Part shown: positions 1 to 61,066 of the stretch, piece after piece
Layout: each line of letters starts with the position of its first letter
Numbering within the stretch: position 1 is the stretch's first letter
DNA from: a virus
Taxonomy: Duplodnaviria; Heunggongvirae; Uroviricota; Caudoviricetes
Length of the DNA stretch: 64,000 nt
Strand: one strand, 5' to 3'
Virus record (IMG/VR): IMGVR_UViG_3300025713_000004
Notes under the pieces: model-generated
Database searches by the model: none
Seen by the model: only the letters and a program-made list of their open reading frames with translations
Told to the model about the DNA's origin: nothing
Translations under genes and position numbers: made by a program

Positions 1-1
1 T

Positions 2-136
2 GAATGGTTAAAAACAATGCCATATATTGTTAAATATTGTTTTGGTATATATTTTAATACAGAAAATGGTCAAAAACTAGGTGGTGTTTTAGTTTTTAGT
101 AATGATTATACAGAAAATACTGGTGTTAATAACTAA
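2..136 (+). CDS. 3' end of an upstream gene (partial, open from the window edge to TAA at 134-136); hypothetical protein
   Basis: Frame 2 is open from the first base to the stop at 134-136 (...GGVLVFSNDYTENTGVNN*). Its 5' end lies outside the window. The IS607-like element begins right after it. Confidence 0.3.
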   Translation, partial: EWLKTMPYIVKYCFGIYFNTENGQKLGGVLVFSNDYTENTGVNN

Positions 137-230
137 TGTAAGTATTTATAATAAAATATGGTAAAAATATTTAATATTTTCTATAACTTTGGGGGATGAA
201 GAACTATTTATATACAAAAACAACTTTAAA

Positions 231-797
231 ATGTATTATAAATTATCTGATTACGCTAAAAAACATAATGTAACATACAGAACCGCATGGAATAGATTTA
301 AAAAAGGTCTAATTGACGGGGCGTTTATAGATGAACATGGACATATTAAAATCCCCGTTTTATCATTAGATAAATTAAACAACGCTATAATTTATTGCAG
401 AGTTTCTAATAATGATGCTAAGGATAATCTAAATAGACAAGCCGATAGATTGACAGACTATGCTATAAGAAACGGATATAATATCATTGATACTGTGAAA
501 GAAATTGCAAGTGGCCTAAACGATAATAGGAAAAAATTAACGGATATTTTAAAAAGAGATGATTGGGATTTACTTATTGTAGAAAATAAAGATAGATTAA
601 CCCGTTTTGGATTTAATTACATTAAAACATTATTAAATTCAAAAGGAAAAGATGTTATAATAGTAAATCAAACTGATGATGATAAAACAGACCTTATTCA
701 AGACCTTGTGTCAATTATATATTCATTCTCAGCCAGACTATATGGATTGAGGAAGAAAAAATCTAAAAAGGAAATTATGGACTTTATTAAAAATTAA
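231..797 (+). CDS. tnpA: IS607-family transposase TnpA (serine recombinase with N-terminal MerR-like HTH)
   Basis: The ORF track starts at a TTG at 189. The first ATG in frame, at 231, gives MYYKLSDYAKKHNVTYRTAWNRFKKG, a typical IS607 TnpA MerR-type HTH N-terminus. The catalytic block IYCRVSNNDAKDNLNRQADRL matches the serine-recombinase active-site region, with the catalytic Ser in 'RVS'. The size, about 190 aa, fits. Confidence 0.8.
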   Translation: MYYKLSDYAKKHNVTYRTAWNRFKKGLIDGAFIDEHGHIKIPVLSLDKLNNAIIYCRVSNNDAKDNLNRQADRLTDYAIRNGYNIIDTVKEIASGLNDNRKKLTDILKRDDWDLLIVENKDRLTRFGFNYIKTLLNSKGKDVIIVNQTDDDKTDLIQDLVSIIYSFSARLYGLRKKKSKKEIMDFIKN

Positions 798-807
798 ATT
801 ATAGATT

Positions 808-2076
808 ATGCAATTGGTGGAAAAACATATCGTTAAGAAAAATTCACGTCTATATTCAGAATGTGATAGAGTATGTTTTCTGTCAAAAAATCTTTATAAT
901 TATGCGAACTATATCGTAAGACAGGAATTTATTAAAACATCAAAAGAAAAAGAAGATGGTTTGGTTAAACATGCCAATTGGATAAGATATAATAGTCTTA
1001 ACAGAACATTTATTGATAATCATCAACACGACTACGTTATGTTACCAAGAAAGGTTTCAAATCAAACGTTGATGATGCTCGATAAAAATTGGAAAAGTTT
1101 CTTTAGAGCAAATAAAGATTATAATAAAAACAAAGAAAAGTATAATGGTAGACCAAAATTACCAAAATACATACATAAAACAGATGGTAGATTTATTACA
1201 ATATATGAGTTGGGTGCAATTTCTAAAAAGTTACTCAATAAAGGTATTGTTAAGTTATCTAAAACAGATATTGAAATTAGAACAAATAAGACCAATATAA
1301 ATATGGTGCGTATTGTGCCCTGTTTGGATGAATATACAATAGAAATAGTTTATACAATACCAGATATGTCACCAAAGGAAGATAATGGCAGATACGCTTC
1401 CATTGATTTAGGTTTGAATAATTTAGCGACCATTACAAGTAATGTTAAAGAATTAAAACCTGTCATAATAAACGGAAAACCGTTAAAGAGTATTAATCAA
1501 TTTTATAATAAGAGGTTGGCACACTATAAAAGCAAATTAGAAAAAATTAACAAGAAAAAACATAGTAAACGAACAAGATGGTTAACCAATAAAAGAAATA
1601 AAAAAATCGATGATTACTTACACAAATCAAGCAGATTGATAATTAATATGCTAAAAGAAAAAGAAATAAATACATTGGTGATAGGAAAGAACACCAACTG
1701 GAAACAAGATATTAACATCGGTAAAACCAATAATCAGAATTTTGTTTCCGTACCATATAGTAGATTTATAAACATGTTGGCTTATAAATGCGAAATGGAT
1801 GGTATACGAACAGTTTTACAAGAAGAGAGTTACACATCAAAAGCATCCTTTTTAAATAACGATTATATTCCAATACACAGTAAAGAGTGTGGGGATAATC
1901 ATATATTTTCAGGATATAGGCAAAGCCGTGGGTTATATAAGATAAAGGGCTGTGATGTTGTGATAAATGCTGATGTAAACGGTTCATATAATATATTACG
2001 AAAAGCATTCCCGAATATTATTGACGGGATAGAGGGGTTTGCAGTAATCCCAGTAATTATTACAATTACAAACTAA
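808..2076 (+). CDS. tnpB: TnpB (IS605 OrfB family RNA-guided endonuclease)
   Basis: The 422-aa protein has an OrfB_IS605 N-terminal region. It has the RuvC-I motif ASIDLGLNNLATIT, an Asp/Glu-containing RuvC-II region, and a C-terminal zinc finger (C..C..17 aa..C, as in CGDNHIFSG...KIKGCDVVINADVNGSYNI). It lies directly downstream of tnpA. Confidence 0.85.
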   Translation: MQLVEKHIVKKNSRLYSECDRVCFLSKNLYNYANYIVRQEFIKTSKEKEDGLVKHANWIRYNSLNRTFIDNHQHDYVMLPRKVSNQTLMMLDKNWKSFFRANKDYNKNKEKYNGRPKLPKYIHKTDGRFITIYELGAISKKLLNKGIVKLSKTDIEIRTNKTNINMVRIVPCLDEYTIEIVYTIPDMSPKEDNGRYASIDLGLNNLATITSNVKELKPVIINGKPLKSINQFYNKRLAHYKSKLEKINKKKHSKRTRWLTNKRNKKIDDYLHKSSRLIINMLKEKEINTLVIGKNTNWKQDINIGKTNNQNFVSVPYSRFINMLAYKCEMDGIRTVLQEESYTSKASFLNNDYIPIHSKECGDNHIFSGYRQSRGLYKIKGCDVVINADVNGSYNILRKAFPNIIDGIEGFAVIPVIITITN

Positions 2077-2090
2077 TTCTATGATTTTCT

Positions 2091-3299
2091 ATGGAATTTG
2101 ATACTGTTTGGGATAAATATGGATTTACAAATAAAATTTTATTATTAAGCAGGGGTGTTTGTTTATGGTGGACACCAAAAAATACAGCATCTTTTTTTAT
2201 TTCTAGGGTTTGTAAATGGTTAAAAAATAATACAAAATATAGAATAATAACAGCAACTGTTGACCCAGCAGCAGGTGAAATCGGAACAATTTATCAATCA
2301 TTAAATTGGTTATATGTTGGTGTTATGTCTGGTAATTATTCCAATAATAAAGAAACAAAAAGATTTTCAGTATTAATTGATGGTAAATTAAGATATAGTA
2401 GATGGGTTAGAAATAAATTGGGTACGATGAAAAAAAATGTTATTTTAAAACACTATCCCAATGCAATATTTTTACCACAATATAGAAAACATAGATATTT
2501 TTATTTTATAGACACACCAAGAAATAATAAAAAACATAAAACATCTATAAATCATTTAATATTACCATATCCTAAAAGAAATGATGAAATTATTGGCGTT
2601 ATTTATAAAATAAAAAACAAAATAAACAACAAATTATATATTGGACAAACAATTCGTTCAATAAATGAAAAAATATTAGAATATAAAAATGGTTTGGGTA
2701 ATGATTATATTAATAATGCATTCAATAAGTATGGTTGGGATAATTTTGAATTTACAATAATTGATACGGCAAAAACAATTCAAGAACTAAACAATAAAGA
2801 AATTAAATATATTAGTGATTATAAATCAAACCAAAAAGAATTTGGTTATAATATTGAAGGTGGTGGTAAAAATATAATACCAACAAAAGAAACTTTAGAT
2901 AAAATGTCTATTTCTCATTTAGGTATTAAACAATCTAAAGAATGGATTAATAAAAGAATTTCAAAAGCAGGTAGTAATGATGCAAAAAAATACGGTAGAA
3001 AAAAAACAAAGCAAGATAAATTAATTTTAAGTAAAAATTCTTCTAAATATTGGTTAGGTAAAAACCATACAGAAGAAACTAAACAAAAAATTAGTAAAAC
3101 AAAAAAACAAATTGGATTGTCTGAAAAACAAAAAGAAATAATTTGCAAAAAGGTATTTAAAGTTAATTTAAAAACTAATGAAATTATTGAATTTGAATCA
3201 ACAAAAAAGGCGAGTGTTTTTGAAAATGTTAATCAATCCACAATATCAAGATGGTGTAAAAATGAAAAAAGAGTAAATGGTTATTTATGGAAAAATTAA
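2091..3299 (+). CDS. GIY-YIG homing endonuclease with NUMOD3 / IENR1-like DNA-binding modules and an extra ~150-aa N-terminal domain of unknown function
   Basis: The central GIY-YIG core is GVIYKIKNKINNKLYIGQT...KYGWDNFEFTIID...NKEIKYI...FGYNIEGGG. C-terminal lysine-rich NUMOD3-like repeats (TKQKISKTKK, SEKQKEIICKK) and a terminal helix-turn-helix-like tail (NVNQSTISRWCKN) resemble I-TevI/Seg-type endonucleases. The N-terminal 150 aa (WWTPKN...RIITATVDPAAGEIGTIYQSLNWLYVG) is not part of a GIY-YIG fold I recognise. Confidence 0.7.
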   Translation: MEFDTVWDKYGFTNKILLLSRGVCLWWTPKNTASFFISRVCKWLKNNTKYRIITATVDPAAGEIGTIYQSLNWLYVGVMSGNYSNNKETKRFSVLIDGKLRYSRWVRNKLGTMKKNVILKHYPNAIFLPQYRKHRYFYFIDTPRNNKKHKTSINHLILPYPKRNDEIIGVIYKIKNKINNKLYIGQTIRSINEKILEYKNGLGNDYINNAFNKYGWDNFEFTIIDTAKTIQELNNKEIKYISDYKSNQKEFGYNIEGGGKNIIPTKETLDKMSISHLGIKQSKEWINKRISKAGSNDAKKYGRKKTKQDKLILSKNSSKYWLGKNHTEETKQKISKTKKQIGLSEKQKEIICKKVFKVNLKTNEIIEFESTKKASVFENVNQSTISRWCKNEKRVNGYLWKN

Positions 3300-3589
3300 A
3301 ATATTAGTGGTTTGAATATATAAGCAGGTTTACCTTATAAAAATTATTAATTTAACTAATATAATTTAATATCTCTTTATAATAAACATTTAGATAATAT
3401 TTTTAGAGTATATTTTTAATATTTCAAGAAATTTATTTTTAATATCATTTACATTAGATTCAATTAGTTTTAAGAATTTCTCTAACTTCATCAGATGAAT
3501 TCTTATATACTTCTTTTAAGGTTTTATTTGTTTCTTCCATCATTTAATTATTTTTATAATATACGATAAATAATTTAAATTGTTACAAA

Positions 3590-3862
3590 TTATTCAACAA
3601 AGTCAATTGTTTTAAAATTTTCCAATTCTAACGATAATTTTTCATAAATATCAATCAACTCATTTAATTTTTCATGTATTTTATACATAATATTAGCAAT
3701 TTGGTTAATATTTATATTTAATAAAAAGACATCATTATAAAAATCTATCCAATTATTATTTATTTTATATTGACCAATAAATGTTAAATTTTTTTCTATG
3801 GGATTAAATTTAACTAATATTCTTCTATCACTATATTTTTCAAAATTTACTTTCCATTCCAT
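3590..3862 (-). CDS. hypothetical protein
   Basis: A 90-aa ORF sits immediately upstream, in the transcription sense, of the helicase gene on the same strand. It has no recognisable motifs. Confidence 0.35.
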   Translation of the reverse strand: MEWKVNFEKYSDRRILVKFNPIEKNLTFIGQYKINNNWIDFYNDVFLLNININQIANIMYKIHEKLNELIDIYEKLSLELENFKTIDFVE

Positions 3863-3874
3863 AAATTTAAAATT

Positions 3875-6800
3875 TTAAGAGATATCTGTCCAATTTCTAT
3901 CAAAGATTAATTCATTTTTTGCTCTTGTATATGCAACATATTCTAAATTTTTTTCTTGTAAAAATTCCCAATTTTTTGTTGTTTTCATTGGTAATAAATC
4001 TGGTCTTATTATAAAGACCCTATTTGCTTCAAGACCCTTTATTTTATGTATTGTACTTAAGCAAATTCCTTGAATTTCATCACTAAAAATTAAACCAATT
4101 TTATTTTTTAAATCAACAATACTATTTGATAATTTTGCTAAAAAAAGTAATGTTGTTACTTTATCTTCTAATGTAACATAACCACTATGTTCATTTGGGT
4201 TTAAAATACCTTCCTTTTTTAATTCTTTTCTATATTTAATTAATTCTCTATCCCAAAAAAGAATTAAATTGTCAATAGATTTAATATCACCAATTAATTC
4301 AATTAACTGAACACCAATATCAGAACCTTTCACAATTGCTTTTTTTTCTTGTTCTAAAAATTCAAAAAATAATTTAATTAATGGTATTGTTGTTCTACAT
4401 AAAACAAAATCACCACTTTCTGCTTCTTTTAAAACATTACCATCCCTTACAATACCATCAGGTGCATTGGGTAGTGCTTTTATATCAGGTACAATTTCTT
4501 GTGCTTTTTTTATTACATTTTTTGAACATCTGAATGACGTTGATAATGGTAGTGTTTTAGTATTTGGGAATTTACTAAACCATTCAAACGCTTTTTCATC
4601 TGCTGCATTAAATCCATATATACAATTATGTGTTAATATATTATCAGCAACATATGTTTCGTATTTATCAATTTCTAAAGAATAAACTAAACCAGAATAT
4701 TTTTCATATTTTAATTCATATATTTTTTGAATGTTGTGCAAATTTGCATTTAAACTGCAAATTTGCATTAAATCTGGAATAATATTAATTGCATATATTT
4801 CTAAAAAATTTTGATTATAATCCATATTCCAATTAGAATTCCATATCGGGTAGTTTGAATTTTTATTAAAATCATTAAATATTTTATCTTTATTTGCTAA
4901 ATAATAATTAGCATCTTTATATGCATAATACAAAGAATAGTACGATTTTAAAATCCAAATTTTATTAACATCACTTTTATTCTTAAAAATTTTAAAAAAA
5001 TCAATCTCATTTCTTATTGTGAATATACGTATGTGTTGAGTTTCATCCATCAATTCAAACAAACACAATACAAATTGTAATTGTTTTGTTTTTTTTATTT
5101 TAACCAAACATTTATGTTCTGGTGTATATTTAGATTCACATCCTCTTGAAATTATTTTTATTAAATTTCCATTATAATACCTACAACCAATATTGTTAAT
5201 TTTACTTTTAATAAAGGAATTACTTTTTCTATCGTAAGAAATAATTAAATCACCAACATTTAAATTTTCAATATCCTTTTCTGTATTATCATTCATTAAT
5301 ATTTTTGTTCCTTTAGGTTGACATTGATAATAATCACCAACAGATATTAATCTACCTATATATTTACCAGTAGTTTTATCTTTTTTTATTAATTTTTCTA
5401 CAATTTTTATTTGACAACGATTTAAATCTTGAACTTCATCAATAAAAATATAATCTTGAGGAAACATCCAAATACTACTATCTATTGCTGGTAAATATAT
5501 CATATCAATAAAATCATAATTTTTTCTATCAATTGTTGATTCTTCTAATATTTTTAATATTCTTTTAATATCTTTATTTTCTTTAATTGGTATATTATAT
5601 TTTTCAGCAATATTTGGAATAAATTCTGAATTTGTTGTTAATGTTAATCTACATAAATTAACCATTTTTTTTATATTATTTAAATATAAAGAAATATCAT
5701 CGTTATCATCAAATTCATCGTTTAATTTCCAATTTTTTGATTTTGATTGTATTATTTTATCAATTTTAAATTCATCGAATTGTATTTTATCACCATATTT
5801 TCTTTTAATTGCAGACGTACCTAAACCATAAGTTGTATAACATCTAACATATTCGGGTAATTTTGTTTTTAATTCTTCTTGTATGTGTTTATTGAACGCT
5901 AAAAACATAATAGATTTATCTTTAGGTAATAATTTTACTGCATCAACTATGGTTGAAGTATTGTGTGTGATTGTAAAATCACCCAATAAAAATCTACCAT
6001 TACCATTTAAAGTAAATCCAAAATATAAACCTTGTGATATAATATTTTCTTTTATTTTAAAAGAAAATAAATTATTGTAATTTGTTTTTTGTTTTCTTTT
6101 ATATACTAAAGGTAATATGCTAGTATTTCCATTAATGTCAATTTTCCAAAAAATGTTATTTCGAAAAGAAAATATCTTTTTCTCTTTATATATAAAACCT
6201 AAACTTTCACATAAAAATTTCAAATTAACTATTTTCCTTTTTGAAATTATTGTTAGTTTGGATGTCCTGTTTTTTTTATTATAATAAACATCAAAAATAC
6301 CCGCCAAGATTTTTTTTCTATTTTCAATAGAATTTATTAGATATTTGTCTGGTATTGATAAATGAATATTCTTTTTGTTTTTATCAATATTAAAAATAAT
6401 ACACTTTTGAAAATCATCGGAATAAAAACCCTTTTCATATTTTTTATTTAAACAAACACTTGTTTTATTTAAAACAAAAAAAGAATTATCTTTTAACTCC
6501 AACAATTTTTCTATTATTTTTCTTGTTAACCTAAAATCGACAAATAAAAATTGTTTTATATTATTTTTTAAATTATATCCTAACCATAATCCTAATAAAT
6601 ATGGATTTATTTCTGTTTTATTTTCTTGAAATTCAACAATGGATTTTTTTAATTTAATATTTTTTAAATAACCATTCCATTTTTTTGAATATTTGAGTTC
6701 ATTTAGTGGTGTATCTAACAAAATTTTAGAAATTTCATTGTAATGTGTAATTACATGAACATCATTACAAACCCAAGAATATCCTATTTCATTTTTTATT

Positions 6801-7045
6801 TTATATAGTTTACCATATCCAATATTTTTATTCAATACTTTACGAGGCGATGAATCATCACCCATTAAAAAATCACCAATTTTTATATCTTGAACCCTTT
6901 TTATTGTTCCATCATACATCAATACTGGTGTATCATATCCAAGACATTTACCTGTACCAGCATATGCTTTTATTAAAATATTTTCAGGTCTTTTTTTTGT
7001 AAATAAAAATATTCTTTCTTGTTCTTTTGTTGGTTTATTAATCAT
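3875..7045 (-). CDS. SF1 DNA helicase (UvrD/PcrA/Rep-like) precursor interrupted by two inteins
   Basis: The extein sequence reconstructs a UvrD-family helicase. Motif I is AYAGTGK|T (Walker A), split after Lys. Motif Ia is TSTIVDAV. Motif II is IFIDEVQDLN (DExx). Motif III is VGDYYQ|CIYGFNAAD (compare GDxxQxIYxFRGA), split before Cys. Each break is occupied by an intein-like insert that starts with Cys and ends with ...THN followed by T or C. Confidence 0.8.
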   Translation of the reverse strand: MINKPTKEQERIFLFTKKRPENILIKAYAGTGKCLGYDTPVLMYDGTIKRVQDIKIGDFLMGDDSSPRKVLNKNIGYGKLYKIKNEIGYSWVCNDVHVITHYNEISKILLDTPLNELKYSKKWNGYLKNIKLKKSIVEFQENKTEINPYLLGLWLGYNLKNNIKQFLFVDFRLTRKIIEKLLELKDNSFFVLNKTSVCLNKKYEKGFYSDDFQKCIIFNIDKNKKNIHLSIPDKYLINSIENRKKILAGIFDVYYNKKNRTSKLTIISKRKIVNLKFLCESLGFIYKEKKIFSFRNNIFWKIDINGNTSILPLVYKRKQKTNYNNLFSFKIKENIISQGLYFGFTLNGNGRFLLGDFTITHNTSTIVDAVKLLPKDKSIMFLAFNKHIQEELKTKLPEYVRCYTTYGLGTSAIKRKYGDKIQFDEFKIDKIIQSKSKNWKLNDEFDDNDDISLYLNNIKKMVNLCRLTLTTNSEFIPNIAEKYNIPIKENKDIKRILKILEESTIDRKNYDFIDMIYLPAIDSSIWMFPQDYIFIDEVQDLNRCQIKIVEKLIKKDKTTGKYIGRLISVGDYYQCQPKGTKILMNDNTEKDIENLNVGDLIISYDRKSNSFIKSKINNIGCRYYNGNLIKIISRGCESKYTPEHKCLVKIKKTKQLQFVLCLFELMDETQHIRIFTIRNEIDFFKIFKNKSDVNKIWILKSYYSLYYAYKDANYYLANKDKIFNDFNKNSNYPIWNSNWNMDYNQNFLEIYAINIIPDLMQICSLNANLHNIQKIYELKYEKYSGLVYSLEIDKYETYVADNILTHNCIYGFNAADEKAFEWFSKFPNTKTLPLSTSFRCSKNVIKKAQEIVPDIKALPNAPDGIVRDGNVLKEAESGDFVLCRTTIPLIKLFFEFLEQEKKAIVKGSDIGVQLIELIGDIKSIDNLILFWDRELIKYRKELKKEGILNPNEHSGYVTLEDKVTTLLFLAKLSNSIVDLKNKIGLIFSDEIQGICLSTIHKIKGLEANRVFIIRPDLLPMKTTKNWEFLQEKNLEYVAYTRAKNELIFDRNWTDIS
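4625..5323 (-). other. Intein 2 (233 aa) in helicase motif III
   Basis: The insert begins CQPKGTKILM and ends ADNILTHN, followed by the +1 Cys of CIYGFNAAD. Removing it restores the UvrD motif III GDYYQ-CIYGF. Cys-rich stretches (GCRYYNGN...GCESKYTPEHKC) suggest a small embedded nuclease or zinc module. Confidence 0.65.
5960..6946 (-). other. Intein 1 (329 aa) in the helicase P-loop, carrying a LAGLIDADG homing endonuclease
   Basis: The insert starts CLGYDTPVLM (intein block A: Cys, four residues, Thr, any residue, a hydrophobic) and ends FTITHN immediately before the extein Thr that completes GTGKT. It contains two LAGLIDADG-type motifs (PYLLGLWLGYN, which is PI-SceI-like LLGLWIGDG, and KILAGIFDVYYN). 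Confidence 0.75.
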
Positions 7046-8975: not shown

Positions 8976-9539
8976 ATGAAAAAAAGAAAACAATTTATTG
9001 ACCTAGAATCAAATCGAATGGGTTTATTTATGAACAATAATTCATTTGATTTGGATATTATGTATGGTAGAAATTATTTACAAACAGATAATGCTCAAGA
9101 AATTATACTATATAAAATAAATGTTATTGAAAGTAAAACACATGACCTTTATGGTCAAGCAAAAGCAAAAGATAAAAAATATTTACCACCAGTAAGATTG
9201 TCCGTTATGGTTAATGTTGAACAAAGTAAGCAAGAATATTATGGTAATAATCAAAGCGGTATTGTTCGTGATGATACGGGTAGTTTGATTTTTGGTGTTT
9301 ATTTAAAAGAATTGGAAGATAAAAAAATTGATATTGATAGGGGCGATATTGTTATGTATAACATGAGTGGTGAAAAAAATAGATTTTATGAAGTTGAAAA
9401 TGCTAATAATGTTACCGATGAAACAACTAAAACAATTGGTGGATTTAAACCATATTGGAAACGTGTAACGGCAGTTCCAGTGCGTAGTGATGTTGTCGCA
9501 TTATTCGAAGGTGGTGAACATGGAGAATTTAGAGTTTAA
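8976..9539 (+). CDS. putative virion structural protein (function unknown)
   Basis: The 187-aa protein has the same balanced composition. GTATTTATA lies 19 nt upstream. Confidence 0.4.
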   Translation: MKKRKQFIDLESNRMGLFMNNNSFDLDIMYGRNYLQTDNAQEIILYKINVIESKTHDLYGQAKAKDKKYLPPVRLSVMVNVEQSKQEYYGNNQSGIVRDDTGSLIFGVYLKELEDKKIDIDRGDIVMYNMSGEKNRFYEVENANNVTDETTKTIGGFKPYWKRVTAVPVRSDVVALFEGGEHGEFRV

Positions 9540-10143
9540 TTTTATTTTTTATAAATCTTCTCCAAATAAATGAATAAAATGGTTGCCAATCGTTAAACTC
9601 AACAATACAAATCTCACCATTTTTTAATGTTTTATTTTCTTTATCATCACAATATTTATATTTTTCAACATCATTCCAATATATTCTATAAAAATCATCA
9701 TCCGTTTCAAAAGAAAGCGAATGATTTAATTTTTCAATATGATTAAAATTTTTTTGAATAAAATTATCTCTACAATCTATTGCAAATAAACTATTAAATG
9801 TTGGTGATGATTTAATAAATAACGAAAAATTATTACCGTAATCTTTTCTTGCTATTAAATTTAGTGCCTTCCAATATGTTCTAGGTAATTCATAATCCCA
9901 TTCTTTTTGTGTTGTGGCATATTCATATTCAATTTTACATATCAATTTCTTTTTTTTATCACCACTAATTTGTATTAATATAATATCGTTTTTATTGTAT
10001 TGATTTTCACATTGAATTTCAAAAAAAATACCACATTTAACAAAAAAAAGTGGCATGTTTTTATTCAAATAATGACACATTATAAATTCATTTTGATGAT
10101 TAATTTTATAATATTCATCAACCGCATTATAATTTTTCCCCAT
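9529..10143 (-). CDS. hypothetical protein
   Basis: A 204-aa ORF on the same strand as the thyA/dut block. Confidence 0.4.
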   Translation of the reverse strand: MGKNYNAVDEYYKINHQNEFIMCHYLNKNMPLFFVKCGIFFEIQCENQYNKNDIILIQISGDKKKKLICKIEYEYATTQKEWDYELPRTYWKALNLIARKDYGNNFSLFIKSSPTFNSLFAIDCRDNFIQKNFNHIEKLNHSLSFETDDDFYRIYWNDVEKYKYCDDKENKTLKNGEICIVEFNDWQPFYSFIWRRFIKNKIKL

Positions 10144-10384
10144 TATTTAACAAATGTTTATTCTTAATTTTATTCAATTCTTCTGATAATATTTTGTGTT
10201 GGTCTTCTGATTGAATACCTAAATCATCACCAAATTCAATGAAAATATCAATAACAAATTTAATATATTCTTTTTCTTTATTAGATAAATAAATGCTTTT
10301 TTTTATAAAAAGAAATAATCCTATTGAAAGAAATAGAATTATTAATATTAATAAAATAATTAATATAATGCATATTATTGTCAT
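10127..10384 (-). CDS. small membrane protein (one transmembrane helix)
   Basis: The 85-aa protein has an N-terminal run, IICIILIILLILIILFLSIGLFLFI, that reads as a single transmembrane segment. Confidence 0.4.
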   Translation of the reverse strand: MTIICIILIILLILIILFLSIGLFLFIKKSIYLSNKEKEYIKFVIDIFIEFGDDLGIQSEDQHKILSEELNKIKNKHLLNNGEKL

Positions 10385-10408
10385 TCATTAAATTAATTCA
10401 AATTTTAA

Positions 10409-11479
10409 TTACTTTTTTTGGTCTTTAGATAATCCAACAAACAATTCAAAATTTATTTTAGAATGTGATTGATAATTTACCAATTCAAAATCATCAATTG
10501 TTAAATTTGTTATATCTTCAAGTGTGTTTAAATTTTTATTAATTTTCATTTTCGGTAATTCAAAGGGCTTTCTTTTTGTTTGATTTTTAATATTTTCAAT
10601 ATGATTAAGATAAATATGTGTACATCCACCAATCCATATAGCAACACTTGGAATCATATTACATGCTTTTGCCATTAACATTAATAATAAACTCATTGAT
10701 GCTAAATTATATGGAACACCAAGCGCAACATCACATGAACGTTGATACATGTTTAAATCAAGATAAAATTTGGGTATGTTATTTGTTTCCAATAAATCTA
10801 AATTTGTTTCAAATAACATTTTTGGTAATTTTAATTCTTTTACTGCATATTTAATGCGTTCTTTTTTCGTTAATGGTCTTACAATAAAATGATAAAGTAA
10901 ATGACAAGGTGGTAATGCCATGTTATTAAAATCAGATTTATTCCAAGCATTTATAATATGATAACGACTATATGGATTATTTTTTAAACCATCAATAACA
11001 TCTTTAACTTGGTCAATACCATTTTGATTTCTCCATTGATAACCATAAACTTTATCCAAATCACCATATGTATATGTTACATATCTTTCATATGGATGTT
11101 CTTTAGTTGGGTTTGGGTTATTAACTTTTGTTTTTTTTCCTCTTTTTACATTATCAATAAATTCATCAAAAGATATTATAGGTGCGCCTAATTTAACATA
11201 TTTATCATTATACCACCTATAGGCATCATCATTCCATATGTTAACATTATTATTAACTAAATATTTAATATTGGTATCACCACGTAAAAACCATAATAAT
11301 TCATGTACAATACCCTTCCAATACATTTTTTTTGTTGTTAGTAATGGAAATCCGTTTTTCAAATCCATTTTTATAGAACTTTTTGAAATTTCTAAAGTGT
11401 TTGGCATATTAGCCCTACCACTTTCTTTTTCAACACCATTTTTTAAAATATTATTAACTAAATTTATATATTGTTTCAT
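10409..11479 (-). CDS. thyA: thymidylate synthase (ThyA family, dUMP-specific residues, with ~90 extra aa of insertions)
   Basis: It starts MKQYINLV...FPLLTTKK as E. coli ThyA starts MKQYLEL...FPLVTTK. The conserved blocks are HELLWFLRGDTN, GDLDKVYGYQWR, RYHIINAWN, the catalytic ALPPCH, and YQRSCDVALGVPYNLAS. The Asp/Asn pair in that last block is the dUMP-specifying pair, not the dCMP-hydroxymethylase pair. A final block is GGCTHIYLNH. Large inserts make it 356 aa. Confidence 0.85.
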   Translation of the reverse strand: MKQYINLVNNILKNGVEKESGRANMPNTLEISKSSIKMDLKNGFPLLTTKKMYWKGIVHELLWFLRGDTNIKYLVNNNVNIWNDDAYRWYNDKYVKLGAPIISFDEFIDNVKRGKKTKVNNPNPTKEHPYERYVTYTYGDLDKVYGYQWRNQNGIDQVKDVIDGLKNNPYSRYHIINAWNKSDFNNMALPPCHLLYHFIVRPLTKKERIKYAVKELKLPKMLFETNLDLLETNNIPKFYLDLNMYQRSCDVALGVPYNLASMSLLLMLMAKACNMIPSVAIWIGGCTHIYLNHIENIKNQTKRKPFELPKMKINKNLNTLEDITNLTIDDFELVNYQSHSKINFELFVGLSKDQKK

Positions 11480-22161: not shown

Positions 22162-24915
22162 ATGGGAAATTTTGTATTCACATCTCCAGGTGTAAAATTT
22201 AAAGAACGTGATTTAACTTTTGTGACACGTAATGTAGGAATAACAACATTGGGTTTAGTTGGCGAAACTATGAAAGGACCTGCTTTTGAACCTGTTTATA
22301 TTGAAGATAAACAACAATTTAAGGAAATATTTGGAAACCAATCAACCAAAAGAATGGATGGTAATTTACAATACCAATTACCCTATGTTGCTAATGCATA
22401 TTTAAACGAATCAAATCAACTATGGGTTACCAGAGTATTGGGTTTAAGTGGTTATGATGCGGGAAATGCTTGGATGTTAACATTAAGTGCTGGATTAGAC
22501 CCTGATAGTATTAATATTGTATCAACAATTACTGATAATACAAGTTTAACTGATAATACTTATTATGGTCATAATATCTATTTTAATGGACAAACTGGTA
22601 CAATAAAAAGTGGTTATACAAAAAATAATATTAATAACACATTTTCACAAACCGTATATGATTATTATGTTGAAGATTATCAAGAAGGTGGTGATTCTGG
22701 TATTCTATATACTGCAACCACTTACACAGGTAAATCATACATCAACTATGAAAATATGGTATTGGCAATAATTAGAAGTAATGGTGATTCTAAAATTCCT
22801 ATTAATGAACCACAAAAAACAAAATTTTATACAAAAAATCTTAAAATAAAGAATAATAAAACATTATTTGATATTGGTGATTTATATGGAAGATTTGATA
22901 TTGAAGTTGTGTTTGAAGAAAATGGTATAGATAAAACTGAAACATATACGGTTTCATTAAATCCTGATGATGCTAGTTTTCTACCAAATGTTATTGGTAA
23001 TAAACCAAAAAGTAAAAAAACAAAAATTTGGGTACAAGAAGTATATCCTGAATTGATGAAAAAACTAAAAACTGATGATTTAGGATATGGTATTAATACT
23101 CAAGTAATAACAGGTAGTTCAACTAATTTTACTGATAGTTTTAATTCTCAATTTCGAACACCAGAAACCCCTTGGGTAGTATCACAAGTTAAGGGTAATG
23201 TAGTTGATAGATTATTTAAATTTATCAGTATTAGTGATGGTAATGCTGCTAATGAAGAAATAAAAATTTCAATTGAAAATATAGACCCAACAAGTTTAAC
23301 ATTTGATGTAATAATTCGTAGTTTTTATGATACTGATGATAATGTTAATATTCTTAAATCATTCATTAAATGTAGTATGATTAAAGAATCAAACAACTAT
23401 ATTGGTAAAAAAATTGGTACTATTGATGGTGAATATCAATTAAAAAATAATTATATTATGGTTGAAATTGCTGATAATATTTCTGATGGAGTATTTCCTG
23501 CTGGATTTGAAGGGTATTATTTAAATGATTATAGCACAAAATCAACAGGGGATAATACAACAACAGGTATTTCACCAACAATATTTTATAAAAGGTCATA
23601 TTTAGTAAGAGAAGATGTAAAAAAAGCATATTTAGGTATTTCAGAAAAAGGATATGGTACAAACAATGGATTTAATCAAAATATGTTTAACTATAATGGT
23701 TATTTTGAATCAAGTCCATATGTTACTGGATTTACTAAATCTAAAGGATTTCATATGGATATAACTGCTACTGCCATAACCAATACTTCATTTGTTGGTG
23801 AATTTGATTGTGGTATGGATGTTTTTCAAACATATAAAGACATTGATAATCCTAACAATAAATATAATAATATTAAAACAAGAAAATTTACTTTAGTTCC
23901 CGCAGGTGGATTTGATGGTTGGGATGTTCATCGTATTTCACGTTCTAATACTGATGGATATCAACAAGGTGGCATATATAGTGGTTATCCGAACAATCCT
24001 TTATTTCCACCAACAAATGATTTTCAAGCATGGCAAATGGCAATAGATACTTTTGCTAATCCTGAAGAAGTTACCATAAATTTATTTGCAACTCCTGGTA
24101 TTAATTGGGCTGACCATCAATTATTAGTAAAAGATACAATTGAAATGATTGAAGAAAAAAGAGCAGATAGTTTATATGTTATTGATTCTCCTGATATCGG
24201 AATTGAATTTAGTGTCGGTAATAGTCGTAATGCAGATGTTGATAATGCTGAATCTTATAAAGAAGCATTAGATTTAACAGAAATAGATAGTAGTTATTCT
24301 TGTACTTATGCTCCTTGGATTCAAATTCAAGACACACAAAATATTTCTGATATTTACATTCCACCAACTGGTGAAGTTTTACGTGCAATGGCATATACTG
24401 ATAAGGTTAATTTTCCTTGGTATGCCCCTGCTGGTTTAAATCGTGGTGCAATTAATGCAAAACAACCAAAATATAAATTAAGTCTTGAAGCACGTGATAT
24501 TCTTTATAGTGGAAGAATTAATCCAATTGCATATTTTTCAGACGTTGGTACTGCAATTTTTGGTCAAAAAACATTAAAGAAAAAAGAAGGTGCGTTAGAT
24601 AGAATTAATGTTCGTAGATTACTTCTTCGAATTAAAGTTTTAATTTCTAACATTGCTGTTAGATTATTATTTGAACAAAACGACCAAGATGTTATTAACG
24701 AATTCTTGGCTAAAGCAAATCCTGCTTTAGCAGCAATAAAAAGAGAAAGAGGTTTATATGATTTTAAAATAAAAATGGATGATACTAATAATACCCCAGA
24801 AACACGTGATAGAAATGAACTATATGGTGAAATATTTTTAAAACCAACACGTACTCTTGAATATATTGGTATTACATTTACAATTACACCTTCAGGTGCA
24901 TCTTTCGAAGAATAA
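22162..24915 (+). CDS. contractile tail sheath protein (T4 gp18 family)
   Basis: The N-terminus FTSPGVKFKERDLTFV...GLVGETMKGPAFEPVYI...FKEIFGNQ follows T4 gp18 LLSPGIELKETTVQS...ALAGKFQWGPAFQ...TFGQP. The C-terminal block GRINPIAYFSDVGTAIFGQKTLKKKEGALDRINVRRLLLRIKVL matches the conserved sheath C-terminal domain (INP..F.G.G..IFGQKTL...ALDRINVRRL). At 917 aa it is a large, jumbo-type sheath. Confidence 0.85.
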   Translation: MGNFVFTSPGVKFKERDLTFVTRNVGITTLGLVGETMKGPAFEPVYIEDKQQFKEIFGNQSTKRMDGNLQYQLPYVANAYLNESNQLWVTRVLGLSGYDAGNAWMLTLSAGLDPDSINIVSTITDNTSLTDNTYYGHNIYFNGQTGTIKSGYTKNNINNTFSQTVYDYYVEDYQEGGDSGILYTATTYTGKSYINYENMVLAIIRSNGDSKIPINEPQKTKFYTKNLKIKNNKTLFDIGDLYGRFDIEVVFEENGIDKTETYTVSLNPDDASFLPNVIGNKPKSKKTKIWVQEVYPELMKKLKTDDLGYGINTQVITGSSTNFTDSFNSQFRTPETPWVVSQVKGNVVDRLFKFISISDGNAANEEIKISIENIDPTSLTFDVIIRSFYDTDDNVNILKSFIKCSMIKESNNYIGKKIGTIDGEYQLKNNYIMVEIADNISDGVFPAGFEGYYLNDYSTKSTGDNTTTGISPTIFYKRSYLVREDVKKAYLGISEKGYGTNNGFNQNMFNYNGYFESSPYVTGFTKSKGFHMDITATAITNTSFVGEFDCGMDVFQTYKDIDNPNNKYNNIKTRKFTLVPAGGFDGWDVHRISRSNTDGYQQGGIYSGYPNNPLFPPTNDFQAWQMAIDTFANPEEVTINLFATPGINWADHQLLVKDTIEMIEEKRADSLYVIDSPDIGIEFSVGNSRNADVDNAESYKEALDLTEIDSSYSCTYAPWIQIQDTQNISDIYIPPTGEVLRAMAYTDKVNFPWYAPAGLNRGAINAKQPKYKLSLEARDILYSGRINPIAYFSDVGTAIFGQKTLKKKEGALDRINVRRLLLRIKVLISNIAVRLLFEQNDQDVINEFLAKANPALAAIKRERGLYDFKIKMDDTNNTPETRDRNELYGEIFLKPTRTLEYIGITFTITPSGASFEE

Positions 24916-60850: not shown

Positions 60851-60923
60851 GTACAATTAACTCAATGGATAGAGTGTTCATTCACAATATGAAATATTGT
60901 TGGTTCGATTCCAACATTGTAAA
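60851..60923 (+). tRNA. tRNA (73 nt), anticodon uncertain
   Basis: It folds as a cloverleaf: acceptor gtacaat/attgtaa with a G1.A72 mismatch; D-stem actc/gagt with a GG-containing loop; a perfect anticodon stem ttcat/atgaa with loop tcacaat; T-arm gttgg-ttcgatt-ccaac. The loop reads ACA at positions 34-36 but has C instead of the near-universal U33, so the identity is unsure. Confidence 0.45.
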
Positions 60924-60956: not shown

Positions 60957-61042
60957 TGCGGTGTGGAGAAATGGTATCTCGCCTGCCTCATAAGCACGGA
61001 GTCCCTATTGGGTTTAAATGGGTTCGATTCCCATCACCGCTA
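60957..61042 (+). tRNA. tRNA-like gene with a CAU anticodon loop and a long (class II-like) variable arm
   Basis: Acceptor (t)gcggtg/caccgc(t). D-stem gaga/tctc. Anticodon stem cctgc/gcacg with one C.C mismatch and loop cTCATAa, giving anticodon CAT. A 19-nt variable region holds a ccc/ggg mini-helix. T-arm atggg-ttcgatt-cccat. A long variable arm combined with a CAU anticodon is atypical. Confidence 0.45.
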
Positions 61043-61066
61043 CAAAAAAACGTTCTTTATATAAAT

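Follow-up and report, generated by a model that had tools for sequence, protein, structure and literature searches.

The stretch analyzed here is 64,000 nucleotides of one strand from the IMG/VR virus record IMGVR_UViG_3300025713_000004 (the window), and our subject is the small transposon near its left edge. Four open reading frames (ORFs) were listed in this region, all on the plus strand: one in frame 2 that is open at the left edge of the window and stops at 134-136, followed by ORFs of 202 amino acids (aa; 189-797), 422 aa (808-2076) and 402 aa (2091-3299). The second of these contains tnpA (231-797), encoding a serine transposase, and the third is tnpB (808-2076), encoding an RNA-guided nuclease homologue. 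Both genes lie on the same strand within 127-2107, a segment that is very probably an intact and recently mobile insertion sequence of the IS607 family, borne by a tailed phage and inserted in the middle of a gene for a Mom-like/GIY-YIG fusion protein. An earlier note, made from the sequence alone, had proposed an IS607-family TnpA/TnpB element in a phage genome, and this identification was confirmed by the protein family models described below and by the surrounding genes. The window encodes a tail sheath protein (22162-24915) and a DnaB-like helicase, and sister IMG/VR contigs contain a T4-like capsid gene. The carriers of the element are tailed phages from anaerobic digesters.

TnpA is 188 aa long and includes the catalytic motif CRVSN. 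Its start is placed at ATG 231, from which the first codons are common to relatives; the mechanically defined ORF begins at TTG 189. The protein matches the NCBIfam equivalog model NF033518 (transpos_IS607) at 167 bits against a cutoff of 110 (3.2e-49), over positions 2-186 of the 187 in the profile. Pfam places a Resolvase domain (5e-19) at ORF residues 66-194, and the catalytic domain is therefore C-terminal, as in IS607-type transposases. The serine transposase with an RVS motif that had been noticed earlier is thus present, matching the IS607 transposase model over its full length, while the MerR-like N-terminus assigned at the same time is consistent with these results. The tnpB product, 422 aa in length, matches NF040570 (guided_TnpB) at 162.6 bits against a cutoff of 100, as well as the Pfam families OrfB_IS605 (2.5e-20) and Cas12f1-like TNB (1.2e-11). 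From these Pfam and NCBIfam matches, the IS607-type TnpA/TnpB pair is real far beyond chance.

The complete element is 1,981 bp long. Its ends could be placed by comparison with a copy in a different context on a 193-kb contig (L029), in which DNA similarity extends over 121-2109 at 96.5% identity and is lost exactly at 121/127 on the left and 2107/2109 on the right. The TnpB of this copy (P0001) is 95% identical to that of the window. Terminal inverted repeats were sought at the two ends: tip-to-tip identity is 7/20, and the longest inverted match, at 6 nt, is shorter than the shuffle mean. There is no target duplication beyond the shared core, and the insertion is scarless, the empty sites being identical to the joined flanks with the core alone in common. 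Both the absence of terminal inverted repeats and the absence of target duplication are hallmarks of IS607 (PMC6188088). The left end is a non-coding segment of 104 nt (127-230), which contains the stop codon TAA at 134-136 and ATTTTCTAT at 176-184; the latter recurs in the right end at 2084-2092, although 9% of shuffled sequences likewise share a motif between the ends. The shorter TTCTAT occurs at 179, 2077 and 2087. More broadly, (A)TTTTCTAT is common to the left and right ends (176-184, 2077-2082 and 2084-2092), TTCTATG forms a direct repeat in the right end, and TTTCTAT is retained among relatives, either within the terminal hairpin described below or next to it. Motifs of the TTCTAT type are candidate subterminal repeats for TnpA binding.

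The interrupted gene and other insertion sites

The sequence to the left of the element (1-126) is the 5' fragment of an interrupted Mom-family/GIY-YIG fusion gene, clipped by the start of the window and ending ...ACT GGT GT; its frame-2 translation reads ...GGVLVFSNDYTENTGV. The remainder of the gene lies at 2108-3299 and encodes the rest of the Mom-family domain followed by GIY-YIG and NUMOD3 domains. The annotated downstream ORF (2091-3299) begins with six codons (MEFDTV) that are element sequence. Of the Pfam Mom profile, just the C-terminal portion (positions 79-202) is matched, by ORF residues 27-162, and the ORF also matches TIGR01453, an NCBIfam family of group I intron endonucleases.

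In sister viral contigs the same gene encodes a single uninterrupted protein, of 485 aa in L001, 501 aa in L003 and 738 aa in L004. That of L001 contains a complete Mom domain (profile positions 3-201), then GIY-YIG and NUMOD1. The sister proteins read ...DYTENTGVW(T/D/K)KYGF..., which corresponds to the left fragment in the window (...DYTENTGV) followed directly by the right fragment (WDKYGF...), and the empty site in four sisters (L001-L004) is AAYACTGGTGTYTGG (AAYACTGGTGT|YTGG). When position 126 of the window is joined to 2108, the resulting ORF can be aligned without gaps to 437 residues of the L001 protein, at 76% identity. Given the uninterrupted sisters and the gap-free joined frame, the transposon is the source of both the TAA at 134-136 and the ATG at 2091.

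These results alter the gene order that had been read from the sequence alone. The element had been placed right behind the stop of an upstream gene; that stop lies inside the element, and one gene is interrupted. The 14 nt counted earlier from the tnpB stop (2074-2076) to the ATG at 2091 are correct, but this ATG and the spacer belong to the right end of the element. Similarly, the downstream ORF does have the GIY-YIG and NUMOD domains of the homing endonuclease that the element was said to abut, but the element is inside one gene rather than between genes. The empty site that the earlier note had suggested looking for in sister genomes exists, as the uninterrupted gene of the four sister phage contigs.

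The fusion gene itself, a gene of DNA-modification/nuclease type, combines a complete Mom-family domain (PF25680) in frame with a GIY-YIG/NUMOD homing-endonuclease module, and is kept in several divergent phages (1-126 plus 2108-3299 in the window; 4737-6194 in L001; 4689-6194 in L003; 4737-6953 in L004). It is located directly 3' of the T4-like major capsid gene. There is no in-frame ATG between the Mom and GIY-YIG halves, and the same GIY-YIG is a free-standing gene in related phages (L005-L015).

The TnpB of the window falls in a 90% identity cluster of 39 members, the contigs of which resolve into six distinct insertion sites. Copies at these sites are 96-100% identical, and every one is exactly 1,981 bp long with intact ORFs. 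At all six, the left flank is GTGT, while the preceding base (position -5) is G at four sites, C at one and A at one. The right end is ...GATACTGT, finishing ACTGT, and the right flanks are mutually unrelated. The insertions are recent: at three different sites (in the window, L116 and L117) the copies share 99.9-100% identity, and at two sites (in L120 and L124) 99.7%. Some of the other copies are intergenic and some lie a few codons from gene ends, and their flanks have no counterpart within the 64-kb window. A near-identity DNA search of positions 1-3400 against 50,697 phage records returned no match, nor did a scan of IMG/VR with the single TnpB protein; the relatives came from an alignment-based scan.

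One pair of phages is particularly informative. The flanks of L129 and of L130-132 are 98.8% identical, and each is occupied by the element where the other has an empty site. L129 has the exact empty version of the L130 site, ...ACCGTGT|TAATTAAAATTGAACG..., identical to the joined L130 flanks. GTGT plus a 28-nt guide matches perfectly at one site of the pair. The copy in L129 is accompanied by a deletion of 647 bp relative to L130, both end points of which are GTGT in L130, and this arrangement suggests an adjacent deletion mediated by TnpA. The positions concerned are 9319-11300 and about 16148 in L129, and 3798-4445 and 9319-11300 in L130. It follows from this pair that reciprocal targets for the element exist in nature.

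The stop codon of the left end and the ATG of the right end (2091-2093) are both in phase with a host ORF read GGT GT|N, and in four of the six insertion sites the upstream host ORF ends at the TAA of the element. The right-end ATG is present in a subset of relatives only and has no evident ribosome-binding site. It may be speculated that, with a stop and an in-phase start supplied by the element, interrupted genes (here the GIY-YIG half) could still be translated. The recurrence of the GGT GT| phase in four of six insertions is likely to reflect the use of Gly-Val codons in AT-rich genomes and not a property of the element.

Right-end RNA structure and the TnpB active site

The right end of the element encodes a conserved RNA structure resembling an omega RNA scaffold, with a minimum extent of 2006-2107, as defined by a covariance model (R1). 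It overlaps the last 70 nt of tnpB and the 31-nt right end. In the window there are four helices (2009-2013/2025-2029, 2034-2038/2047-2051, 2053-2057/2065-2069 and 2073-2083/2090-2100), the last of which is followed by a 7-nt tail, ATACTGT (2101-2107); the ATG at 2091 is within the 3' arm of the last hairpin. The first two helices, both inside the 3' end of tnpB, are those recovered by RNAalifold from 32 right-end regions in a plain MAFFT alignment, with compensatory changes in nine of twelve pairs, some of which change the encoded amino acids. The other two hairpins were found by eye and by script, and in most relatives the last one stops at a fixed distance of 7-9 nt from the element boundary. 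Because of length variation, helices 3 and 4 are mis-registered in the MAFFT right-end alignments (A3 and A4), which were replaced by the covariance model. This model was built from six equal-length relatives only, with TnpBs about 47-52% identical to that of the window. Searched against the whole window, it gives a single match, at 2006-2107, covering the full model (57 bits, E = 6e-9) and ending at the boundary. Across 61 distinct sequences, 94.3% of cells pair, compared with 65.7% in shuffles, and double changes are present in 24 of the 26 pairs. Second matches to the model also occur about 1.2-2.5 kb from the tnpB-linked ones in two relatives (L047, 5015-5111; L068, 1092-1217).

It could be argued that this structure is not a guide scaffold, and that it arises as a by-product of coding constraint combined with DNA motifs bound by TnpA. 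Helices 1-3 are indeed part of the tnpB coding sequence, a TTCTAT motif that is also found in the left end overlaps with the terminal hairpin (which in some relatives is an inverted repeat of the motif), and AT-rich shuffled sequences alone yield stems of about 6 bp. However, in L038, L069 and L093 the CC..GG pairing of helix 1 is changed to GG..CC/UC, so that pairing is kept while the encoded Pro/Gly are changed, and sliding the partners by a single column cuts pairing to 52% or less. Moreover, the 3' arm of the last hairpin stops 7-9 nt short of the boundary in most relatives whatever the arrangement of the motifs. A by-product is thus considered very unlikely as an account of the whole structure, although constraint from coding or from a DNA site is a possible source of part of the terminal hairpin signal.

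The sequence directly to the right of the element, TTGGGATAAATATGGATTTA (2108-2127), is the putative guide template. It belongs to the host Mom-like gene, is unique in the window, and together with GTGT reconstitutes the empty site of the sisters. By analogy with characterized IS607 TnpBs, the guide would begin at 2108 (TTGGGATAAATATGG...), inside the Mom-like domain. The earlier expectation that the right end and omega RNA would overlap the 3' end of tnpB therefore agrees with the covarying structure at 2006-2107, and the lack of conserved structure that had been named as a possible objection was not encountered, since a conserved, covarying structure is present and ends exactly at the element boundary. 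A guide transcribed from the start of the GIY-YIG gene was not upheld: from 2108 the sequence falls inside the Mom-like domain, and the ATG of the ORF is that of the transposon.

The active site of TnpB departs from the canonical arrangement in a conserved manner. In an alignment of 40 homologues (55-95% identity), D200, G293, E339, E340 and D389 are invariant, with D200 in the RuvC-I motif IDLG, E339 and E340 in EESYTS, and D389 in the RuvC-III motif NADVN. Profile alignment places G293 opposite the canonical RuvC-II Glu of Cas12f and TnpB; a profile was used for this search of the Protein Data Bank (PDB), for which the single sequence gave marginal matches only. No CxxC pairs that might form a zinc finger are present in TnpB, and across the family a single Cys at most is conserved, at position 346, which is Ala in the window and lies six residues after E340. 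A published class of TnpBs has Gly in place of the RuvC-II Glu, with another Glu making up for the loss (PMC10691335), and the IS607 lineage ancestral to Fanzors is marked by an alternative Glu located six residues ahead of the zinc-finger position (PMC10711439). The zinc finger, present in most TnpBs, is lost in some branches (PMC10691335). From these sequence features, E339/E340 would represent the alternative Glu for RuvC-II, in a rearranged active site of a published type that is unlikely to be a relic. An AlphaFold model of the protein (predicted local distance difference test, pLDDT, 87.5; predicted template modeling score, pTM, 0.78) has its best Foldseek matches in Cas12f, the ISDra2 and ISFba1 TnpBs and a mimivirus Fanzor2, with template modeling (TM) scores of 0.54-0.64. 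Together with the family matches, this identifies a TnpB fold of WED/REC, split RuvC and TNB domains.

Alternatively, TnpB could be an inactive or domesticated relic, a passive passenger alongside TnpA or a non-nuclease regulator. The Gly at 293 in place of the canonical Glu and the lack of CxxC pairs would fit such a model, and inactivated, exapted TnpBs are documented (PMC10691335; bioRxiv 10.1101/2023.11.30.569447). However, the Gly substitution is itself invariant and is paired with the invariant EE at the published alternative-Glu position across the 40 homologues, down to 55% identity, and D200 and D389 are invariant as well. Between sublineages, tnpB has a ratio of nonsynonymous to synonymous substitution rates (dN/dS) of about 0.2 and tnpA one of about 0.1, indicating purifying selection, and all six copies retain D200, G293, EE339-340 and D389. 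The gene is also kept in mobile, TnpA-linked elements with a covarying right-end RNA, while the published exapted forms are immobile. Given the invariant residues, the dN/dS values and the intact ORFs in six copies, a relic is highly improbable. The description of TnpB in the earlier note accordingly stands for its full length and its RuvC-I and RuvC-III aspartates, and fails for the zinc finger, as no CxxC...CxxC is found. The inactivating disruption of RuvC residues that it had raised as a concern was judged not to apply: the canonical Glu is missing, but an invariant putative alternative is present family-wide.

A third possibility, that the element is an IStron-like transposon removed from the Mom-like mRNA by a self-splicing intron so that the host gene stays functional, draws on the precise interruption of a coding sequence within a conserved domain and on the IS607-family IStrons known to behave in this way in Clostridia (bioRxiv 10.1101/2023.11.20.567912; PMC4227781), but it is exceedingly improbable: there is no group I or II intron match in 1-4000 at E <= 10, across the whole window none reaches the gathering score, the left end measures 104 nt as against 581 bp of native left end in the tested CboIStron substrate, the shared GTT permits four placements of the boundary, in none of which a 5' exon with a final U is combined with an intron with a final G, and other copies are intergenic or lie a few codons from gene ends. 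IStron identity was rejected on account of the missing intron model match, the 104-nt left end and the incompatible boundary bases.

Target motif, core dinucleotide and proposed mechanism

The target-site motif GTGT (123-126) precedes the left end at all six sites and is host-gene sequence in the four empty sister sites; it is the putative target-adjacent motif (TAM) of TnpB, which we infer to recognize it. Positions 125-126 are the probable crossover dinucleotide and are repeated at 2106-2107, and the sequences suggest that the core common to target and right end is probably GT (or the overlapping TG), not GG. The right ends of about 57 further, more divergent relatives on viral contigs finish ACT[G/A/C]T. 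Seventeen relatives in addition to the window (18 with the window's own element) have both a tnpA gene and an assigned right end. In 13 of these 17, a matching GT[same base]T occurs once, 85-104 nt upstream of tnpA, and a fourteenth (L041, at 67 nt) was recognized by eye; the right end of L106 was mis-assigned. At four loci the automatic assignment took a copy of ACTAT in the hairpin as the right end, and these were corrected. The cores of the relatives are thus GT, AT or CT, with the left flank matched to the right end. A GG core at both termini and target has been reported for every characterized IS607 member (PMC6188088, PMC10711439, PMC13565253), and is termed 'strict' in one case (PMC13565253). 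The GG core is not part of the protein-based definition of the family, and this element does not have it.

A model for the element can be drawn following the IS605/IS607 paradigm (PMC8612924, PMC10055086, bioRxiv 10.1101/2023.11.20.567912). TnpA would excise and insert the element as double-stranded DNA, via a circular double-stranded intermediate, with crossover at the 2-bp core GT (or TG), leaving neither duplication nor scar. From the right end, tnpB and a structured RNA of about 100 nt or more would be transcribed, and read-through past 2107 would add a guide derived from the flanking host gene. The complex of TnpB and this RNA could then cut element-free copies in which GTGT is followed by TTGGGATAAATATGG..., while a C in place of G at -4 (CTGT instead of GTGT) would protect the occupied site. 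A cleavable empty copy might arise by excision or be supplied by a co-infecting relative, the latter being the most plausible source in a phage. Recombinational repair off the occupied copy would restore or spread the element. Transcription and processing of the RNA, the length of its guide, TAM recognition, cleavage and homing are all predicted by analogy in this model. A more general reading can be offered tentatively, as a proposal that we judge somewhat less probable than its negation: in a phage-borne IS607 lineage, the core may have moved from GG to NT, the TAM may have co-evolved with it (GTNT, as opposed to CTNT at the right end), and the nuclease may serve mainly as a self-reprogramming weapon of homing and marker exclusion between co-infecting phages.

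Several points weigh against the reading of the locus as a mobile element with an RNA-guided nuclease. All characterized IS607 elements use GG, whereas TnpA would have to act at a GT core here. The nearest empty sites for this particular copy are found only in phages that are 66-76% identical at the protein level, and one of them (L003) has two mismatches over the first 20 guide positions. For the RNA, the covariation counts lean towards structure because the alignment was fitted to the model. A search of Rfam returned no matching family (no omega RNA, IS605-orfB motif or intron), its sole match being snoRNA-like with E = 1.3, a chance level, and 1900-2107 folded as a single sequence does not outperform shuffles (z = -0.52). 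The overlap of the terminal hairpin with the conserved TTCTAT motif may likewise mean that part of it acts as DNA, as a binding site for TnpA, and not as RNA. Finally, we know of no precedent in this clade for activity after loss of all zinc-finger cysteines.

Neighborhood and comparison with known systems

A neighboring gene on the opposite strand encodes a UvrD-like helicase of 1,056 aa (3875-7045, minus strand) with two inteins (a Hom_end-associated Hint at residues 34-87 and an Intein_splicing match at 583-807). Because these inteins sit next door, the first 7 kb of the window comprise the transposon, a homing-endonuclease fusion and two inteins, and the locus is already a hot spot for selfish elements on account of the GIY-YIG fusion and the two adjoining inteins alone. 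Elsewhere, L130 and L132 encode a further, different TnpB (475 aa) from about 20999, and these large phages carry several TnpB-type elements. At the far end of the window, ARAGORN detects a tRNA-Cys with the anticodon ACA (60851-60923), which has the unusual loop TCACAAT (C 33, A 34) and is followed by a tRNA-Met (60957-61043).

The gene map of the region is corrected by this analysis, since one conserved phage gene is split by a transposon where three neighbors had been assumed. The resulting data set, comprising exact ends, six sites, empty sites, a candidate TAM (GTGT), a putative guide start and an RNA covariance model, concerns a compact TnpB of 422 aa that lacks a zinc finger, uses an alternative glutamate and, judging from the sequences, is apparently active in phages at present. 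Should the non-GG core be confirmed, there would be exceptions to the 'strict GG' rule for IS607, and a single clade would show covariation of the transposase target with the nuclease TAM. The near-identical phages with reciprocally occupied and empty sites make RNA-guided homing between phages directly testable.

In overall organization, the element resembles IS607 of Helicobacter pylori, IS1535 and ISC1926, in which a serine TnpA with an N-terminal DNA-binding domain is likewise followed by tnpB on the same strand, and in which terminal inverted repeats and target duplications are absent, short direct subterminal motifs (here candidates) are present and a 2-bp core is shared (PMC6188088). 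Those elements have the core GG/(G)GG, as opposed to GT/GTGT here, where the replicon is a tailed phage and TnpB is rearranged in RuvC-II and free of a zinc finger. The CboIStron of Clostridium botulinum (Zedaveinyte et al., bioRxiv 10.1101/2023.11.20.567912) similarly inserts in genes, has a scaffold that ends at the right end, and uses as TAM the target motif of TnpA, as appears to be the case here. A one-base difference would separate self from non-self in both (TGGG in the TAM versus TCGG at the right end in CboIStron; GTGT versus CTGT here), although the discriminating base is at -3 in CboIStron and at -4 here, where there is no group I intron and the left end is 104 nt.

With respect to the nuclease, the RuvC-II-rearranged TnpBs (for example clade RIIr-5; Altae-Tran et al., PMC10691335) and the alternative-Glu IS607 TnpB/Fanzor2 lineage (Yoon et al., PMC10711439) have in common with this TnpB the change of the canonical Glu to Gly, a Glu six residues ahead of the zinc-finger position, a NADxN RuvC-III motif and the link to IS607. 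The structure of ApmFz2 (9b0l) matches this TnpB in Foldseek with a TM score of 0.59. However, Fanzors have a DPG RuvC-I motif and eukaryotic or eukaryotic-virus hosts, whereas here the motif is IDLG and the host a tailed phage, so that the alternative Glu alone is in common. All four zinc-finger cysteines are missing here as well, and the likeness to these lineages is drawn from such features. The TnpB-omega RNA complexes of ISDra2 and ISXfa1 resemble the present system in overall fold (8h1j and 8exa, TM 0.54-0.68), in having the guide RNA at the 3' end of tnpB and right end of the element, and in drawing the guide (putative here) from the flank, but their proteins are only about 16% identical to this TnpB, the active-site layout differs, and no Rfam or published RNA model fits this scaffold.

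In its predicted outcome, the element would be analogous to the free-standing homing endonucleases of T4-like phages (SegF, Mob; PMC13565253), by which an element-free allele in a co-infecting relative is cut and the element copied along with nearby markers; here the targeting would be RNA-guided and reprogrammed at each insertion, and the element has its own transposase. The apparent departures from characterized IS607 elements, on sequence grounds, are the GT/GTGT core, the zinc-finger-less, alternative-Glu TnpB, the scaffold without a curated RNA model and carriage by tailed phages of digesters. Each of these is a change of parameter in a known mechanism, and the class of active site is one already published.

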